Shown one piece after another: positions 3,122 through 47,070 of a stretch of 52,965 nt of DNA. Source of the DNA: an uncultured Bacilli bacterium (GTDB lineage Bacteria > Bacillota_I > Bacilli_A > RF39 > UBA660). Both the position numbers and the translations under genes were made by a program. The notes below the pieces were generated by a model. That model was given only the letters and a program-made list of their open reading frames with translations, was not told the DNA's origin and did no database searches. The stretch is taken from contig CANRPF010000006.1 of NCBI GenBank assembly GCA_947632375.1, positions 1-52,965 on the forward strand. Direction: 5' to 3'. Every line of letters begins with the position of its first letter. The stretch's first letter is position 1.

Positions 3122-3871
3122 ATGAATAAGCATTATTGTTGCACAGATTTACATGGAATGTTAGACCTTTGGTTACAAATTGCTAGATATTGTGATAAAA
3201 CAGATACAATTTACTTTCTAGGCGATGCAATAGATAGAGGTAAAGATGGTATGGCTGTTATGAAAAATCTTCTTCTTGACTCAAGAGTGATATATCTAAA
3301 AGGTAATCATGAAGATTTAATGGCAGATGCGGTTGCCGAGGTGTTAGGCGCTAGTTACCTTGATATATTTCATACATGGATGTACAATGGAGCGCAGGAT
3401 ACCTGGAAAGATTTATCACAATATGCAGATGGTAGTAAAGAATGGTTTATGAATAAAATACTAGCCATGCCAGACAATGAAGTATATATCAATCCTAAAG
3501 GACAACATATCTTTCTTTCTCATGCTGGAACCGCACTTGACTACGAACCATATGAGTTATTATACGCGGAAAAGGAAGGTAATAGATACCTATGGGATAG
3601 ATTTCATATTAACAAACCGTGGCCAAAGGATAAAAAATATAAAGATTGGTATGTCGTACATGGACACTCTCCAGTCCAATATGTTACTAGAAGATATGAT
3701 TTACCTTTACAATTAGACGAAGAAATGAGACCTTTAATAATTGAATATGCAAATGGTCACAAATTTGACCTAGATTTAGGTTCATTTGATTCAAAGGTTG
3801 TTGCATTATTTGACCTAGATGAATTAAAAGTTACTAAATATTTTTATATGAAGGACGATGTTGATGAATAA
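3122..3871 (+). CDS. Ser/Thr protein phosphatase-like metallophosphoesterase (PPP / lambda-PPase family)
   Basis: Motifs DLHG, GDAIDRG and GNHE in canonical order and spacing. RBS aaggt upstream. Confidence 0.75.
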   Translation: MNKHYCCTDLHGMLDLWLQIARYCDKTDTIYFLGDAIDRGKDGMAVMKNLLLDSRVIYLKGNHEDLMADAVAEVLGASYLDIFHTWMYNGAQDTWKDLSQYADGSKEWFMNKILAMPDNEVYINPKGQHIFLSHAGTALDYEPYELLYAEKEGNRYLWDRFHINKPWPKDKKYKDWYVVHGHSPVQYVTRRYDLPLQLDEEMRPLIIEYANGHKFDLDLGSFDSKVVALFDLDELKVTKYFYMKDDVDE

Positions 3872-41479: not shown

Positions 41480-41908
41480 ATGATTCCAATATCAACAGCT
41501 ATTTGGGACCCAAAATGGTATCATAATTTTACAGGTAACTATAATTATATATTTAAAGACAAAAGAGGAATAGTCAATGGTATTAGATACTTACCTATAA
41601 TAGAATGCGGGAAGGCCGCTCAAAGCTGCAAAGGTCCAGAACATTGTAGTTTTCAACCGGAACCCGCATGTCCTTTTTTAAGTAGTTATAGACAAAATCT
41701 TGAACAATTAGATTTTAATAATCTTTTATCTGACTTTTCTTCTCTTGCTGAAAAATATAAAGAAGCAGAGAGTATAGATGAAGAAATAATAATGGTTTTA
41801 ATTGTTTATGAAACTCCTAAAAATTCTTGTAGTGAGAGAGTAGCTTTAATAGATTATTTTAACTCGCATGGAGTTGAGTGTGAAGAATTGGTTTATCCAA
41901 TCACTTGA
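41480..41908 (+). CDS. Hypothetical protein
   Basis: 142 aa ORF with Cys cluster CGKAAQSCKGPEHC. Confidence 0.3.
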   Translation: MIPISTAIWDPKWYHNFTGNYNYIFKDKRGIVNGIRYLPIIECGKAAQSCKGPEHCSFQPEPACPFLSSYRQNLEQLDFNNLLSDFSSLAEKYKEAESIDEEIIMVLIVYETPKNSCSERVALIDYFNSHGVECEELVYPIT

Positions 41909-41933
41909 CTTTTGATTTAAAATATGTTATAAT
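41905..41933 (+). promoter_or_regulatory. Promoter TTGACT-17-TGtTATAAT upstream of the second homing-endonuclease-like gene and the polymerase
   Basis: Hexamers at 41905-41910 and 41928-41933. Confidence 0.55.
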
Positions 41934-42074
41934 ATAAATAGATTAAAAAAGTGAGCATTTTTATTGATACGCATACAAACTATATAAAAATATGAAAAAA
42001 TTTTGGACGAAGTTTAATAAAGTTCCTGTGAGTATTTTTAAATATAATATCAAAATAAGAAAAGGGGCTTTATT

Positions 42075-42980
42075 ATGAAATTGATTGATTTAACAGGGCA
42101 AAGATTTGGCAAGCTAGTTGTTTTAGAAAGAGACACTTCAAAGACTAATGGCACCTATTGGTTATGTAAATGTGATTGTGGAAAAATTATTTCAGCAAGA
42201 AAAGACCAATTAACTAGGTTAAAAAATCCTAAGCGTAGTTGTGGATGTGATTTAGCAGAAAAAACATCATTGGTTCATGTAAAAGATGAAACAGGAAAAA
42301 GATATGGAAAATTAACTGTGTTATATAGAACAGAAGATTTGCGCAAAGGAGAAGCAAGATGGCATTGTAGATGTGATTGTGGTAATGAATGTGATGTTAG
42401 CGGTGTTCATCTTAGAAATGGTTCTGTTCAATCTTGCGGGTGCAAAAGATATGAAAGTCATAATGGTATAGATGAAACAGGTAAAAAGTATGGAAAATTA
42501 ACTGTGTTATATCGTAGTAAAAATATAGATAGTTCACATATTTTTTGGCATTGTAAATGTGATTGTGGTAATGAATGCGATGTTAATGGTTCTTATTTAA
42601 GAGCTGGTATTAGTACAAATTGTGGCTGTGAAAGAAGTGTTGGTGAACATAAAATTGCGAAAATACTTAAAGAAAATAATATACGTTTTAAACGAGAATA
42701 TACTTTTCCTGACTTATTGGGTGATGGTAGAGGAAGGTTAAGATTTGATTTTGGAATTTTAAATGAAAAAGATGAATTATTATATTTAATAGAATATGAT
42801 GGTATTCAACATTTTGAACCAAATTGTTTTGGCTATAATGAAGAAAACTTTAATATTCTAAAAAAATATGATAAAATAAAAGATGAATACTGTAAAAAGA
42901 ATAATATTTATTTAATAAGAGTGCCATACACAAAACTTAAAGATTTAAGCCTCAATGACTTAATAAGAAAGGAGGATTGA
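42075..42980 (+). CDS. Homing-endonuclease-like protein, paralogue with three zinc-ribbon DNA-binding repeats + restriction-endonuclease-like C-terminal domain
   Basis: Three copies of the GxR[FY]GKLxVL.R...W.C.CDCG......L..G...SCGC unit. C-terminal LIEYDGIQHF ... IYLIRVPY is the same as 14796-15524. Repeats 2 and 3 are near-identical at the DNA level. Confidence 0.5.
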   Translation: MKLIDLTGQRFGKLVVLERDTSKTNGTYWLCKCDCGKIISARKDQLTRLKNPKRSCGCDLAEKTSLVHVKDETGKRYGKLTVLYRTEDLRKGEARWHCRCDCGNECDVSGVHLRNGSVQSCGCKRYESHNGIDETGKKYGKLTVLYRSKNIDSSHIFWHCKCDCGNECDVNGSYLRAGISTNCGCERSVGEHKIAKILKENNIRFKREYTFPDLLGDGRGRLRFDFGILNEKDELLYLIEYDGIQHFEPNCFGYNEENFNILKKYDKIKDEYCKKNNIYLIRVPYTKLKDLSLNDLIRKED

Positions 42981-43028
42981 TAAATAATGATAATGAGTAG
43001 ATTTGAAATACATTCACATACTCATTAT

Positions 43029-43049
43029 TCTTAGGTATCTAACCTAAGA
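43029..43049 (+). other. 8-bp stem / 5-nt loop hairpin containing an in-frame TAG at the start of the Pol III alpha PHP domain (candidate recoding / bypass element)
   Basis: tcttaggt-atcta-acctaaga. TAG at 43032-43034. A UCU codon precedes the stop and an identical UCU (43038-43040) lies in the loop. Confidence 0.6.
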
Positions 43050-43106
43050 TTATTAGATTGCATAAATCGTCCAAAAGATTTAATCAATAGAGCGATAGAT
43101 TTAGGA

Positions 43107-46100
43107 TTGGCAGGAATCACAATAACCGACCACGAATGTTTAAGTTCACACATGGAAGTAAATAAATATGCTCAAGAAATAAGTAAAGAACATCCTGATT
43201 TTAAAATTGCATTAGGTAATGAAATTTATTTATGTGGCGATAGAGAAAGTGGACAAAAATATTTTCACTTTATTTTAATTGCAAAAAATAAAGATGGACA
43301 TAGAGCATTAAGAGAACTATCTTCAAGAGCATGGATGAACTCATATTGGGACCGCGGAATGGAGCGTGTGGTTACTACATACTCAGATTTACAGGAGATT
43401 ATAAGTAAGTATCCTGGTAGTATTATAGCGACGACCGCATGTTTAGGTGGAGAATTAAGTACAATGACTTTAAGATTAGTTGAAAGTCGTAATCTCCATG
43501 ATATTGATGGCGAAAGAATGATGCAAGACAGAATAGCAAATTTTGTCTTGTTTTGTAAGAATATATTTGGTGAAGATTTTTATATTGAATGTGCGCCAGG
43601 TTTAAGTAAAGAACAAATTGCAGTTAATAAACAATTAGTTTCTATTGCACAATGCTTTAATGTAAAGATGGTAGTAGGAACTGACGCTCACTATTTAAAA
43701 AAAGAAGATAGATTTGTTCATAAAGCATATTTAAACTCAAAAGGTGGAGAAAGAGAAGTTGATGATTTTTATGAGTATGCTTATTTGCAAACTCAAGATG
43801 AAGTTATCAATTATTTGAGTCAAAGTATTCCAAATGAAATTGAACAAATGTTCAAGAATAGTTTGGAAATTTATGATAAGATAGAAAATTATTCGCTTGA
43901 ACATAAGCAAACTATTCCACAAGTTGAAGTAAAGGATTATCCAAAAAATTCTTGGTGGGGAGTAAATAATCCAGACGCAGATGAAATGTCAAATTATCCA
44001 ATATTAAAATCAATGTTTGTTTCAGATGATAAAGTTGAAAGATATTGGGTGAATCAATGTTGGGAATCACTTGAAAAAATAAAGGGTTCTTGGCGAGATA
44101 ATTTGAATTATGTAGCAAGATTGGAAGAAGAGGCTGATACAAAGAGGGTTATTGGAGAAAAATTGGAAACTAATATGTTTAGTTATCCAGTAACACTCCA
44201 GCACTATGTAGATTTATTTTGGAATTGTGGTAGCATTGTAGGCGCAGGCCGCGGTTCAAGTTGCTCAGGATTGAATCATTACTTATTAGGAATTACACAA
44301 CTTGACCCACTTCAATGGGACCTTCCATTCTGGAGATATTTGAATAAAGAAAGAATTGAACTTGGTGATATTGATTTGGATTTATGTCCATCAAGACGTC
44401 CAACAATTCTTAAAGAAATTAAAAAAGAGAGAGGTCAAAAGTTTAAATTAGATATAGATGATTTATCAAGAAAAAATCTTGGCTGTACATTGATTGCTAC
44501 TTTTGGTACAGAAGGAACTCGTTCTGCAATTTTAACTGCATGTCGTGGTTATAGAAGTGAAGAATATCCTGATGGTATTGATGTTGATACAGCTCAGTAT
44601 ATGTCATCATTGATTCCTTCTGAGCGAGGATTCTTGTGGCCATTAAATGATGTTGTAAATGGTAATAAAGATAAAGATAGACGTCCAATTAGTGCGTTTA
44701 TCAATGAAGTTAATCAGTATGAAGGATTGTTAAATATTATGTTAGCAATCGAAGGCTTGATTAACAAGAGAAGTAGTCATGCTTCTGGTGTTATCTTGTT
44801 TGATGAAGACCCATATGAATTTGGTTGTTTTATGAAAACTCCAAAAGGAGAAATTATAACACAATATGATTTACATATGTGTGAAGCAGCGGGTATGACA
44901 AAATATGACTTCTTAGTAACAGAGTTTCAGGATAAATTAAGAGAATGTATTAGATTGTTACAAGAATATAATGAAATTGACTCAAAGCTATCATTGAGAG
45001 AAGTATATAATTTATATTTTCATCCAAATGTTTTACCTATTGAAGACAAAAATATATGGAAGGTATTACATGATAATAGTGTATTAAATATCTTTCAGTT
45101 TGATTCAGCTGTTGGAAGCCAGGCAGCTAAAAAGATTAAACCATCAAATATTCTTGAAATGGCAGATGCGAACGGACTTATGAGATTGATGACAAGTGAA
45201 AAAGGTCAAGAATCACCAATGGAGAAGTATGTAAGATTTAAAAATAATATAAGTCTGTGGTATAACGAAATGCGGACGGCCGGTCTTTCCGCCGATGAAC
45301 AGCATACATTAGAGCCATACTTCTTGAAATCATATGGAGTGCCACCAAGCCAGGAACAGCTAATGATGATGTTAATGGATGAAAATATTTGTGGTTTTAC
45401 TCTCGCAGAAGCGAACGCCGCGCGTAAAATTGTCGGTAAAAAGCAAATGTCTAAGATTCCAGAATTAAAACAACAAGTTTTGGATAAAGCAAAAAGTGAA
45501 CACCTTGGACATTATGTATGGGAGCATGGTATTGGACCTCAGATGGGATATAGCTTTAGTATTATTCATGCTTTAGCATATAGCTTTATTGGTTTTCAAG
45601 GTATGTTTATAGCAACTCATTGGAATCCTATCTATTGGAATACAGCTTGTTTAATTGTTAATAGTGGTTCTCTTGAAGATGATGACGATGTAGAATATGA
45701 AATAATTGAAGATGATGATGGAGAAAGTGTTAAGAAAAAAGAAAAAGGAACAGATTATGCGAAAGTGGCTAAAGCTCTTGGTGATATTATCTCTCATGGT
45801 ATTCATATTTCATTAGTAGATATAAATAAGTCAAATTATAGTTTTGAACCAGATGTTGCAAATAATCAAATTTTGTTTGGTATGAAAGCATTAAGTAATG
45901 TTGGCGCGCCAATTATTGATATGATTATTGCAAATAGACCATATAAGAGTTTTAAAGATTTTTTAAATAAATGTCCATTAAATAAAACAGCGATGATTTC
46001 TTTAATTAAAGCTGGAGCATTTGATAATTTAGAGACAGAATGGGCAGAGGAACTTCATGTTCATCCTCGTATTTTAATAATGACATATTATTTATCATTA

Positions 46101-46991
46101 AATTGTGATGCAAAGAAAAGATTAACATTACAAAATTTTAATGGGTTAATGCAAAAGAGTTTGATACCAGAATCTTTAAGTTTCCAAAAAGAAGTATTTA
46201 TCTTTAATAAGCTATTGAAAGCTGAAAAGAAAGTTGGTAAATATTATGTATTTGACCAGTCTTGTGAAGATTTTTATTCAGATAATTTTGATACAAATAA
46301 ATTAAATGTAATAAATGGTATAACTTGTATTCTTCAAACAGATTGGGATAAAATATATCAAAGTGTAATGGATGATGCAAGAGAATGGCTAAAACAGAAT
46401 CAAGATGAAGTATTAAGTGAATTTAACCAGGTCTTATTCTTAGAAACCTGGATAAAATACGCTTCAGGCAGCATTTCCGCGTGGGAAATGGAGAGTTTAT
46501 GTTTTTATTATAATGAACATGAATTGGCTCACGTTAATAAAAATAAATATGGTATTAGTAATTTCTTTACTATGCCAGAACAGCCAGAAGTAGAATATTT
46601 CTTCAAAAGAAATGGTAAAGATATTCCAATATATAAAACACATAAAATTATTGGAACTGTTATTAGTAAGAATGATACTCGTTCATCAATTACATTGTTG
46701 ACAACAGATGGTGTTGTTGATGTGAAGTTTACAAAAGAATATTTTGCGATGTTTAATCGTCAAATATCTGAAGTTCAAGAAGATGGAACTAAAAAAGTAA
46801 AGGAAAAAGGCTGGTTTACAAGAGGAACAAAAGTATTATGCACTGGTTTTAGAAGAGAAGATACTTTTGTAGCAAAAACATATAAAAGAACCGCGTCACA
46901 TCAATTATATAAAATCACAGATGTTGATAAAGATGGAAATATTACATTGATTCATGAGCGATATGGTGCAGAAAAGAATGAAAAAGAATGA
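43107..46991 (+). CDS. DNA polymerase III alpha subunit (DnaE/PolC family). The coding sequence probably begins at ATG 42987 but is interrupted by an in-frame TAG at 43032-43034
   Basis: PHP domain (ITITDHE), GAGRGSSCSGLNHYLLGITQLDPL and LGDIDLDLC blocks typical of Pol III alpha. The same frame upstream encodes MIMSRFEIHSHTHYS-TAG-VSNLRLLDC, the canonical HxH..YSLLDG start of the PHP domain. The 43107 TTG start is the track's minimal call. Confidence 0.85.
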   Translation: MAGITITDHECLSSHMEVNKYAQEISKEHPDFKIALGNEIYLCGDRESGQKYFHFILIAKNKDGHRALRELSSRAWMNSYWDRGMERVVTTYSDLQEIISKYPGSIIATTACLGGELSTMTLRLVESRNLHDIDGERMMQDRIANFVLFCKNIFGEDFYIECAPGLSKEQIAVNKQLVSIAQCFNVKMVVGTDAHYLKKEDRFVHKAYLNSKGGEREVDDFYEYAYLQTQDEVINYLSQSIPNEIEQMFKNSLEIYDKIENYSLEHKQTIPQVEVKDYPKNSWWGVNNPDADEMSNYPILKSMFVSDDKVERYWVNQCWESLEKIKGSWRDNLNYVARLEEEADTKRVIGEKLETNMFSYPVTLQHYVDLFWNCGSIVGAGRGSSCSGLNHYLLGITQLDPLQWDLPFWRYLNKERIELGDIDLDLCPSRRPTILKEIKKERGQKFKLDIDDLSRKNLGCTLIATFGTEGTRSAILTACRGYRSEEYPDGIDVDTAQYMSSLIPSERGFLWPLNDVVNGNKDKDRRPISAFINEVNQYEGLLNIMLAIEGLINKRSSHASGVILFDEDPYEFGCFMKTPKGEIITQYDLHMCEAAGMTKYDFLVTEFQDKLRECIRLLQEYNEIDSKLSLREVYNLYFHPNVLPIEDKNIWKVLHDNSVLNIFQFDSAVGSQAAKKIKPSNILEMADANGLMRLMTSEKGQESPMEKYVRFKNNISLWYNEMRTAGLSADEQHTLEPYFLKSYGVPPSQEQLMMMLMDENICGFTLAEANAARKIVGKKQMSKIPELKQQVLDKAKSEHLGHYVWEHGIGPQMGYSFSIIHALAYSFIGFQGMFIATHWNPIYWNTACLIVNSGSLEDDDDVEYEIIEDDDGESVKKKEKGTDYAKVAKALGDIISHGIHISLVDINKSNYSFEPDVANNQILFGMKALSNVGAPIIDMIIANRPYKSFKDFLNKCPLNKTAMISLIKAGAFDNLETEWAEELHVHPRILIMTYYLSLNCDAKKRLTLQNFNGLMQKSLIPESLSFQKEVFIFNKLLKAEKKVGKYYVFDQSCEDFYSDNFDTNKLNVINGITCILQTDWDKIYQSVMDDAREWLKQNQDEVLSEFNQVLFLETWIKYASGSISAWEMESLCFYYNEHELAHVNKNKYGISNFFTMPEQPEVEYFFKRNGKDIPIYKTHKIIGTVISKNDTRSSITLLTTDGVVDVKFTKEYFAMFNRQISEVQEDGTKKVKEKGWFTRGTKVLCTGFRREDTFVAKTYKRTASHQLYKITDVDKDGNITLIHERYGAEKNEKE

Positions 46992-47070
46992 AATAAAAAC
47001 ATGGAATCCTAATAAAGAAGCAACATTTAAAATAGATAATGCAACAATAAATTGGGAGTTTTTAAAAAGA

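Follow-up and report, generated by a model that had tools for sequence, protein, structure and literature searches.

The window examined here, a 52,965-nucleotide (nt) stretch of contig CANRPF010000006.1 from an assembly attributed to an uncultured Bacilli bacterium (GCA_947632375.1), contains a gene for the alpha subunit of DNA polymerase III (Pol III alpha) that is interrupted after 15 codons by an in-frame TAG, and, just upstream of it, a gene for a free-standing homing endonuclease. The features of the polymerase and endonuclease region lie on the forward strand. A strong Shine-Dalgarno (SD) sequence, aggagga (42970–42976), serves the functional polymerase start and stands 10 nt 5′ of the ATG at 42987. 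The first part of the polymerase open reading frame (ORF), at 42987–43031, reads atg ata atg agt aga ttt gaa ata cat tca cat act cat tat TCT and encodes MIMSRFEIHSHTHYS, which holds the His-x-His (HxH) motif of the PHP domain. The TAG follows at 43032–43034; past it, the same frame reads VSNLRLLDCINRPK...ITITDHE and remains open until the TGA at 46989–46991. This interrupted frame had been described in an earlier reading of the DNA made without database searches (the sequence-only reading), and it is confirmed here.

The serine codon in front of the stop (UCU, Ser15, 43029–43031) is the proposed take-off codon of a translational hop. The UAG and the GUA behind it (43032–43037), bases that are absent from homologues, would form an untranslated gap, the UCU at 43038–43040 would be the landing codon, and the AAC at 43041 would be decoded next. 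The codons after the landing UCU are aac cta aga tta tta gat tgc. The second part of the ORF (NLRLLDCINRPK..., 43041–46991, ending in the stop TGA) encodes the rest of the PHP domain, followed by the polymerase, finger and HhH domains, and the domains identified by Pfam are PHP, DNA_pol3_alpha, finger and HHH_6. After the landing codon 1316 codons follow without a stop, in DNA of 32% G+C. When nine bases are taken out, the result is a Pol III alpha of 1331 residues with PHP, polymerase, finger and HhH domains.

The TAG was seen again in a separate ENA contig (L001, sample ERZ27249080), which has the identical tct tag gta tct in DNA that is 98.6% identical to the window (24 mismatches in 1838 nt). 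Since the insert is identical in an independent contig that differs at 24 positions, the TAG is no assembly slip. L001, with 2.5x coverage, also has a 1-nt indel at about position 1690 (about 44170 of the window), which breaks the polymerase frame after ...GEKLET and is probably an assembly error. A megablast search with positions 42000–47000 against GenBank phages gave no match. The best tblastn matches, to Enterococcus and SPbeta-group phages, were about 42% identical, with no close annotated relative among them. Gene callers mis-start or mis-frame polymerase genes of this kind (P0001, P0044 and P0108), P0001 being started at Met55. The practical effect is that the polymerases so called lose the metal-binding HxH motif.

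Inserts at a single serine codon

A search of 5.8 billion protein sequences revealed more than 1600 relatives of the polymerase. Among the best 120 of these, nearly all start with M..RFE.HSHT.YSN[LI]RLLD[CS]IN[RK]PK. The DNA of 160 loci was fetched from IMG/VR and metagenomes and that of 35 more from collections of metagenome-assembled genomes (MAGs); individual loci are cited by L numbers. H.H..YSN.R-LLD was found in a single frame in 151 of the 167 loci of the first survey, and in most of the 35 further loci. The family consensus at the site is HSHTHYSNLRLLDCINRPK. More than 150 homologues read HTHYSNLRLLDC, and this is exactly what a hop from UCU to UCU would produce in the window. That hop had been suggested in the sequence-only reading, and it is supported both by its product and by the series of variants, 5–9 nt long, described below. 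The extra DNA had been taken to be 18 nt. Comparison with the family consensus reduces it to 9 nt (tag gta tct), the NLR residues behind it being native to the family. The closest polymerase, L200, has no insert; it lies on a 139.6-kb contig from a rabbit-gut bin, is 84% identical in amino acid sequence over the N-terminal part, and its uninterrupted gene has 79% nucleotide identity with the window from 43056 on.

All of the non-canonical loci depart from the family at the same place, with insert lengths that range from 5 to 9 nt and cover all three frames. These serine-site inserts are called type A. The 5-nt form, UCC UAA CC AAC, is found in L079, L083, L242 and L243, with seven contigs for one endonuclease cluster, and the phages that carry it are called A5. 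Inserts of 6 nt are UCU UAG UCU in L172 and UCC CGG UCU in L006, the latter in frame and free of stops; CGG is the rarest arginine codon in the window (0.75 per 1000). The 7-nt inserts are UCU UAG A UCU (L004), UCU UAG U UCU (L002, L003 and L236–241, the last group from at least six sequencing runs), UCU UAG C UCU (L235) and UCU UAA C UCU (L228). Those of 8 nt are UCC UGA UG followed by UCU or UCA (L072, L074, L146 and L149), which define the A4 phages, and UCC UAA UG UCU (L169). Finally, the 9-nt inserts are UCU UAG GUA UCU, in the window and L001, and UCU UAG GUG UCA in L171.

The shared design is a UCU or UCC take-off codon, a stop, which may be any of the three, 0–3 nt, and a serine codon directly before the asparagine codon; the 5-nt form departs from it in having ACC as the landing triplet. 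The codons for take-off and landing pair as UCU/UCU, UCC/UCU, UCC/UCA and UCU/UCA, with the imperfect pairs UCC/ACC in A5 and UCU/UUU in L232. The L232 contig begins within a 7-nt variant (UCU UAA A UUU AAU, positions 1–22), and represents either a copy in decay or a mismatch that is tolerated. Of 96 distinct canonical genes, only 9 use UCU or UCC for this serine. Gap lengths in related cassettes are 3, 4, 5 or 6 nt, and both flanks are conserved in their own frames. In every variant the frame past the landing codon is open for 410–1316 codons, or until an intron, a TGA used for tryptophan or the end of the locus. A single variant was found on up to nine contigs, and the insert type recurs in many diverged lineages and samples. 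In a single locus, L078 (about 2979–2990), TAG replaces a glutamate codon nearby (M A K R F, TAG, V H S H), which may be use of TAG for glutamine, an error or a nonsense allele.

Most relatives have polymerase ORFs that are broken at about residue 445, either after ...LPFWR (continuing as LELLRNSLPA) or after ...ELG (continuing as SLQLMLPSCK). A GIY-YIG or NUMOD3 ORF is located within the gap in L002 (5369–6473), L004 (2351–3407), L006 (4366–5757) and L234 (4351–5323). These breaks look like intron-type insertions at two sites; the polymerase gene of the window is unbroken in the corresponding region, 44310–44420.

Inserts of 5, 7 and 8 nt change the frame, and read-through of the stop is therefore unable to rescue them. 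A hop would rescue every insert length and would give the canonical protein each time. The closest relative of the window cassette is that of L235, which has 89% identity in the endonuclease and belongs to a collinear locus with 80% nucleotide identity; its insert is 7 nt long, so that a change of frame is needed there. Homologous cassettes thus differ by non-triplet indels inside the gap, as an undecoded gap predicts.

The 15-codon ORF upstream of the insert keeps its SD, start codon, His-x-His, tyrosine and serine in every insert-bearing locus. Between the members of the A4 and A5 pairs its codon differences are nine synonymous and none non-synonymous, and the few replacements elsewhere in it are at positions that also vary in canonical genes. 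By these comparisons, the upstream 15 codons are under purifying selection while, in the same genomes, the duplicate copy of them, described in the next section, decays. The bare motif of a codon, a stop, 0–3 nt and the same codon occurs at 436 sites in the window, of which 13 precede open frames of at least 200 codons. No significance can be given to the motif alone, and, since it is so common, the case depends on the homologues.

The endonuclease cassette and a second, convergent one

The endonuclease gene (42075–42980) encodes 301 amino acids and stops 6 nt short of the polymerase ATG. The protein has three CxCxCG zinc-ribbon repeats and a C-terminal nuclease domain of the Vsr/EDxHD-like type. 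Its PHROG matches, with E values down to 9e-48, carry annotations as HNH, homing or intron-encoded nuclease. An AlphaFold2 model had a mean confidence (pLDDT, predicted local distance difference test) of 86 when built with an alignment of 43 homologues, and of 33 from the single sequence. A Vsr-like fold and the conserved acidic and histidine residues expected of EDxHD/Vsr-like enzymes were both found. Searches of PDB sequences, with the single sequence and with a profile, gave nothing credible, and a search of NCBIfam gave no match.

The gene is preceded by a leader, aaaaaattttggacg...tttttaaatataatatcaa (41995–42074), which is conserved in L079, L004, L072, L146, L172 and L235. Upstream of the leader, at 41951–41994, is a decayed remnant of an old polymerase 5′ end, which begins with GTG and reads VSIFIDTHTNYIKI up to a stop; it forms the left homology arm and the left junction of the cassette. 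This left copy is intact in L172 (VDRFEIHSHTHYSNIR) and L235 (MMRFESHSHTHYSNFR), recognisable in L079, L004 and L002, and eroded in L072, L146 and the window. It always ends after the N-[LI]-R codons and is followed by the same leader, aaaaaattttggac. Farther upstream there is a promoter-like sequence, TTGACT-17-(TG)TATAAT (41905–41933), the best site in a scan, with 11 of 12 matches and the TG. It aligns with the promoter ahead of the uninterrupted polymerase gene of L200. By this alignment it is taken to be the original polymerase promoter, which now lies 5′ of the remnant, the endonuclease gene and the polymerase gene and would drive the cassette.

The alignment of L200 to the window runs to 41957 and resumes at 43056, and the two blocks are separated by 85 nt in L200 and 1099 nt in the window. 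On this comparison, L200 represents the empty site and the window the filled one. The cassette is about 1.05 kb long (41995–43049) and is made up of the leader, then the endonuclease gene, a new SD followed by duplicated polymerase codons 1–15, and the insert. Only loci with an insert had an endonuclease gene of this family within 100 nt 5′ of the polymerase. This gene is intact in the window, L004, L172, L235 and L236–241, interrupted by reassigned stops in L072, L146 and L242, and cut to a 3′ remnant in L002 and L149; in L169, L171 and L228 it is gone and the insert has been kept. That the 9 nt are a cassette-linked insert in a functional gene is very likely.

A second endonuclease gene of the same family, with matches to PHROG 374, 559 and 9084, lies at 14772–15524 of the window and encodes 250 amino acids. 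Its leader (about 14713–14771) has the same motif, aaaaaaattggac...ttaatatataatatcaa. It comes directly after an RNA ligase gene (13470–14714), and a quick look revealed no duplicated gene end or insert beside it.

Polymerase genes of other phages carry another cassette, called type B, in a similar arrangement and with a different endonuclease (Pfam HNH). Its left junction falls after the LLD codons. The functional copy has one extra T, two codons 3′ of the type-A site, which changes ...CGU UUA CUU GAY to ...CGU UUA CUU U GAY and so creates CUU UGA. This site was present in 21 IMG/VR loci with very diverged polymerase N-termini (DKDFVHLHVHSEYSNIRLL, MRSYFNCHSHTMYSNLRLL, DMMRFCPHAHTEMSNFRLL and others). 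All 21 keep HxH in the upstream frame, and about half have an HNH gene directly upstream. Two more such loci were found in MAGs. The pattern scan had given 23 matches, of which L174 and L181 were excluded as non-polymerase; L197 and L198, which matched a pattern with a TAC start, were false positives, being canonical genes read out of frame.

In the diverged loci L005, L086, L107 and L150, the extra T is preceded by an identical stretch of 15 nt (AAU CUU CGU UUA CUU), and these codons vary freely in canonical genes; L173–L195 came from a scan in which CGU UUA CUU was fixed and are uninformative on this identity. It reflects either a short co-conversion tract or a stimulatory sequence. Another locus, L073, has an HNH gene directly upstream of a polymerase gene whose frame is unbroken. 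It contains a −1/+1 indel pair, giving ATAATAAAAATT for ATTAATAAAATT, which turns the nearly invariant DSINKI into DSIIKI and may be another way of spoiling the target. L069 has the same polymerase sequence, with no endonuclease match directly upstream.

Type-A and type-B inserts each lie 3–9 nt from the left junction of their own cassette. Because two unrelated nucleases at neighbouring points each bring one such change near the junction, these findings support the view that the small frame-breaking changes serve the nuclease, through immunity of the target, and that translation must cope with them.

Proposed translation across the insert

The endonuclease is proposed to target the conserved coding DNA ...HTHYS NLR LLD... 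of cassette-free polymerase genes. The right-hand copy made by the duplication would recreate that target, and the insert would break it and so confer self-immunity. We infer both the target and the immunity role from position. In the mRNA, a ribosome would read the 15 codons and stall with peptidyl-tRNA-Ser on the UCU at 43029–43031 and the UAG in the A site. The tRNA would then unpair, the mRNA would slip by 9 nt, and the tRNA would re-pair on the UCU at 43038–43040. Decoding would restart at the AAC at 43041 to give a single-chain polymerase with the canonical ...HTHYSNLRLLDC... The junction peptide from a hop would be FEIHSHTHYSNLR, and that from read-through FEIHSHTHYS-X-VSNLR. As a whole, these findings are best explained by an insert that shields the cassette against the nuclease encoded in it and that ribosomes cross by a short stop-hop, which we consider fairly probable. 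That the 9 nt of the window are crossed by a UCU-to-UCU hop is likewise rather likely; we infer that a stop-hop is the most economical mechanism for this variant.

With respect to local signals, there is a hairpin of 8 bp with a 5-nt loop at 43029–43049 (tcttaggt, 43029–43036; atcta, 43037–43041; acctaaga, 43042–43049). Its 5′ arm comprises the take-off codon, the UAG and GU, and the landing codon is within the loop. The hairpin has a minimum free energy of −9.5 kcal/mol (z = −2.2), a stability matched by 9 of 200 dinucleotide shuffles and only modestly above chance. Apart from a 6-bp form in L002, the hairpin was absent from the relatives compared (L004, L072, L149, L079, L171 and L235). It could not be retained as a conserved signal, the sister variants that lack it including the other 9-nt variant, L171. 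The hairpin noted in the sequence-only reading is thus real, and the weight placed on it there is unsupported, though it may assist in the window variant. An SD-like AGGU(A/G) was observed in the gap, one base before the landing codon, in both 9-nt variants (window 43033–43036; L171 3357–3361). The AGGU is limited to these two, and the shorter variants are without it. A search of the whole window against Rfam at gathering thresholds gave no match.

Several observations weigh against the stop-hop. The hairpin is modestly better than shuffled sequences and is not conserved. The nascent chain at take-off, the conserved PHP N-terminus common to all homologues, has 15 residues and is too short for a signal in the exit tunnel of the kind used by gene 60 of phage T4. 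Landing codons are imperfect in two variants, ACC in A5 and UUU in L232, and the matched serine codons could in part be a by-product of the origin of the insert, for example by duplication during break repair. Other unfavourable points bear on alternative ways of making the polymerase.

One of these is that the UAG at 43032–43034 is read through, by a suppressor tRNA encoded elsewhere in the phage genome or by near-cognate decoding, with three extra residues between the HxH motif and NLRLLD (Ser-X-Val-Ser). The window variant is in frame, and read-through would also give a full-length protein. L171 is the only other variant of 9 nt and has GUG for GUA and UCA for UCU, changes at third codon positions only; these are synonymous if translated, as translation of the insert predicts. 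Furthermore, relatives of the window reassign stops. A4 phages have in-frame TGA at conserved tryptophan positions of the endonuclease and polymerase genes (L072 2115, 2316, 2502 and polymerase residue ~526; L149 polymerase residue ~170; the endonuclease gene of L146) and appear to read TGA as tryptophan, so that the "stop" in the A4 insert may not act as one. In A5 phages there are five in-frame TAG codons in the endonuclease gene (L242 2501–3400; also L243 and L079), given as glutamine in the depositor's gene call. A scan for tRNA genes in the 53-kb window, part of a genome of probably about 135 kb, found none, and a suppressor tRNA could lie elsewhere.

The window itself uses the standard code, with TAG as a stop. 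Its 55 tiled ORFs end in TAA (31), TGA (17) or TAG (7); among the last is the helicase gene 2 kb upstream, the length of which matches that of homologues, and no other long ORF is broken by TAG. A phage-wide reassignment of TAG to glutamine was rejected for the window on these grounds. Read-through also fails to account for L235 and most of the sister variants, which are out of frame. The A5 polymerase gene has no TAG in 810 codons, the reassigned codons being confined here to the selfish gene, and these TAG-reassigning phages have TAA, not TAG, in the insert. No homologue has three extra residues at this place, and L006 has two (from the rare CGG and UCU). Read-through in the window is therefore considered unlikely.

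A second alternative dispenses with recoding: the 15-codon ORF would terminate, and the polymerase would be made from the TTG at 43107, from the ATG at Met55 or by re-initiation, the HxH strand being missing or supplied in trans by a split gene. Gene callers did pick downstream starts, Met55 in P0001, and endonuclease insertions are known to split genes (T4 gene 39/60, nrdA). In the 8-nt variants a UGAUG or UAAUG arises from the insert, its AUG being in frame with the polymerase (AUG UCU AAU...), and in L171 a GUG comes right after the UAG; both are classic layouts for translational coupling. These stop-start overlaps are at 2990–3000 in L072, L146 and L149, at 5590–5600 in L169 and at 3356–3364 in L171 (UAG GUG). 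Termination followed by re-initiation is a live alternative for the 8-nt variants and L171. It is not possible in the window, where the codon after the UAG is GUA, no start; the next in-frame starts are 25 and 44 codons 3′, lack an SD, and would delete HxH and the conserved LLD. Moreover, the junction is without a start codon in L172, L004, L002, L235, L236, L228 and A5, and the upstream 15 codons are kept by purifying selection while the left copy decays. This alternative is quite unlikely for the window.

It might also be supposed that each length class has a mechanism of its own: a +1 shift at UCU UAG for 7 nt, −1 or +2 shifts for 5 and 8 nt, and read-through for 6 and 9 nt, with one to three residues added. 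The type-B cassettes appear to use a stop-stimulated +1 site, CUU UGA, and shift-prone stops would thus be in use in the polymerase gene. Nevertheless, three or four unrelated mechanisms would be needed for homologous cassettes, re-pairing of tRNA-Ser is poor at +1 (CUU) or −1, and the serine codon before the asparagine codon and the constant UCY take-off codon would be left unexplained, which makes such a patchwork highly improbable. That the gene is dead or its sequence wrong, through a nonsense insertion newly acquired by a defective phage or through an artefact of assembly, has the very smallest likelihood: errors do occur in metagenomic assemblies, and L001 is of low coverage with an indel further into the gene, but the identical insert in an independent sample that differs at 24 other positions, the 1316 stop-free codons after it at 32% G+C, and the recurrence of the insert type across diverged lineages and samples, tied to a specific neighbouring gene, all speak against it.

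Known recoding systems and implications

The nearest known parallel is the bypass of gene 60 of phage T4 with its mobA cassette (Bonocora et al., 2011, as summarised in PMC5009743; Agirrezabala et al., 2017, PMC5462505; Manning and Atkins, 2022, bioRxiv 10.1101/2022.08.31.505936). In gene 60, ribosomes cross a 50-nt gap with the help of 5′ and 3′ stem-loops, an SD-like element before the landing site and a nascent-peptide signal at residues ~14–29 of a 46-residue chain; the gap gives self-immunity against MobA. A likeness to gene 60 had been put forward in the sequence-only reading. It holds in that the interrupted coding sequence has an endonuclease gene directly upstream, the position of mobA in T4, and it fails in that a 15-residue chain has no tunnel signal of the gene 60 type. 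In both systems the endonuclease is free-standing and the insert is near the 5′ end of a conserved, essential replication gene, with a stop right after the take-off codon. The landing codon equals the take-off codon or is related to it by wobble, and the stop varies among homologues (UAG, UGA or UAA) or is replaced by a rare "hungry" sense codon, here the CGG of L006. The insert outlives the decay or loss of the endonuclease gene, with the same decay series. A presumed protection of the element's own target is also common to both; a hairpin at the take-off codon was seen here in the window variant and, at 6 bp, in L002.

The differences are substantial. The gap is 3–6 nt here (inserts of 5–9 nt, with a gap of 6 nt in the window) compared to 50 nt in gene 60, take-off is at codon 15, which leaves no room for a tunnel-filling nascent peptide, and conserved stem-loops, whether 5′ or 3′, and a conserved internal SD are lacking. 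The gene is that for Pol III alpha rather than a topoisomerase, and the sequence of the cassette is not homologous to that of gene 60. Unlike MobA, the nuclease is Vsr/EDxHD-like and has zinc-ribbon repeats. The cassette duplicates the 5′ end of its gene and provides a new start, whereas in T4 the gene is split into two proteins. The system in the window is outside the gene 60 family. The nuclease also differs from I-Bth0305I, an EDxHD/Vsr-like enzyme (PDB 3r3p): that enzyme is intron-encoded, and the one in the window is free-standing, has three N-terminal CxCxCG zinc-ribbon repeats, and has no significant match at the sequence level to any PDB entry.

Short stop-hops have been produced in engineered constructs (Weiss et al., 1987, as described in PMC5009743). 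The UCU UAG UCU of L172 is exactly their arrangement, and the window adds three bases to the gap; a slowly decoded A site together with re-pairing in the P site is the proposed basis in both. Those described here are natural, in an essential gene and conserved across lineages. According to a 2016 review, no natural hopping at an in-frame stop was known (PMC5009743), and a preprint of 2022 still calls the gene 60 cassette unique (bioRxiv 10.1101/2022.08.31.505936). A literature search, whose reach excluded most papers in subscription journals, revealed no description of hopping or frameshifting in Pol III alpha genes of phages, nor of natural stop-hops.

The byp elements of Magnusiomyces capitatus mitochondria are another instance of bypassing (Lang et al., 2014, as summarised in PMC5009743). 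Like the inserts described here, they are short mobile inserts in coding sequence which are crossed by a hop between matched or nearly matched codons, and some imperfect landing is tolerated. They are reportedly 27–55 nt long, mitochondrial and numerous in each genome, with an unassigned codon in the A site and no associated endonuclease gene.

The type-B relatives, as distinct from the site in the window, resemble prfB, the gene for release factor 2 (RF2), which has a programmed +1 frameshift at CUU UGA with an SD-like stimulator 3 nt upstream (reviewed in PMC5009743). They have the same heptamer, CUU UGA Y, at which leucine, a +1 slip to UUU and then aspartate would be expected. They differ from prfB in having no SD-like stimulator (AAU CUU CGU UUA stands upstream), in lacking an autoregulatory logic and in their linkage to an HNH homing endonuclease. 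Taking both types together, there is about an even chance that phages of gut Bacillota have at least two unrelated endonuclease cassettes in the first 20 codons of the Pol III alpha gene, each of which protects its target by a micro-insert that the ribosome removes, in one case by a serine stop-hop over 5–9 nt, in the other by a prfB-like +1 shift.

Until now, programmed bypassing was known from a single phage example (gene 60 with its homologues) and one yeast mitochondrion. If the explanation proposed here is true, these would be the first natural, selected short stop-hops and the second class of cassette, after T4 mobA/gene 60, to combine an endonuclease with a bypass, and it would follow that hopping requires neither a long gap nor a nascent-peptide signal. 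The natural series of gaps of 3–6 nt, in all frames and in an essential polymerase gene, is a ready mutational series on hopping without a tunnel signal. Two nucleases would have reached recoding by two routes at points no more than six codons apart. Recoding looks like a general answer to the problem of a selfish nuclease that must spare its own copy of the target where the protein sequence is fixed.

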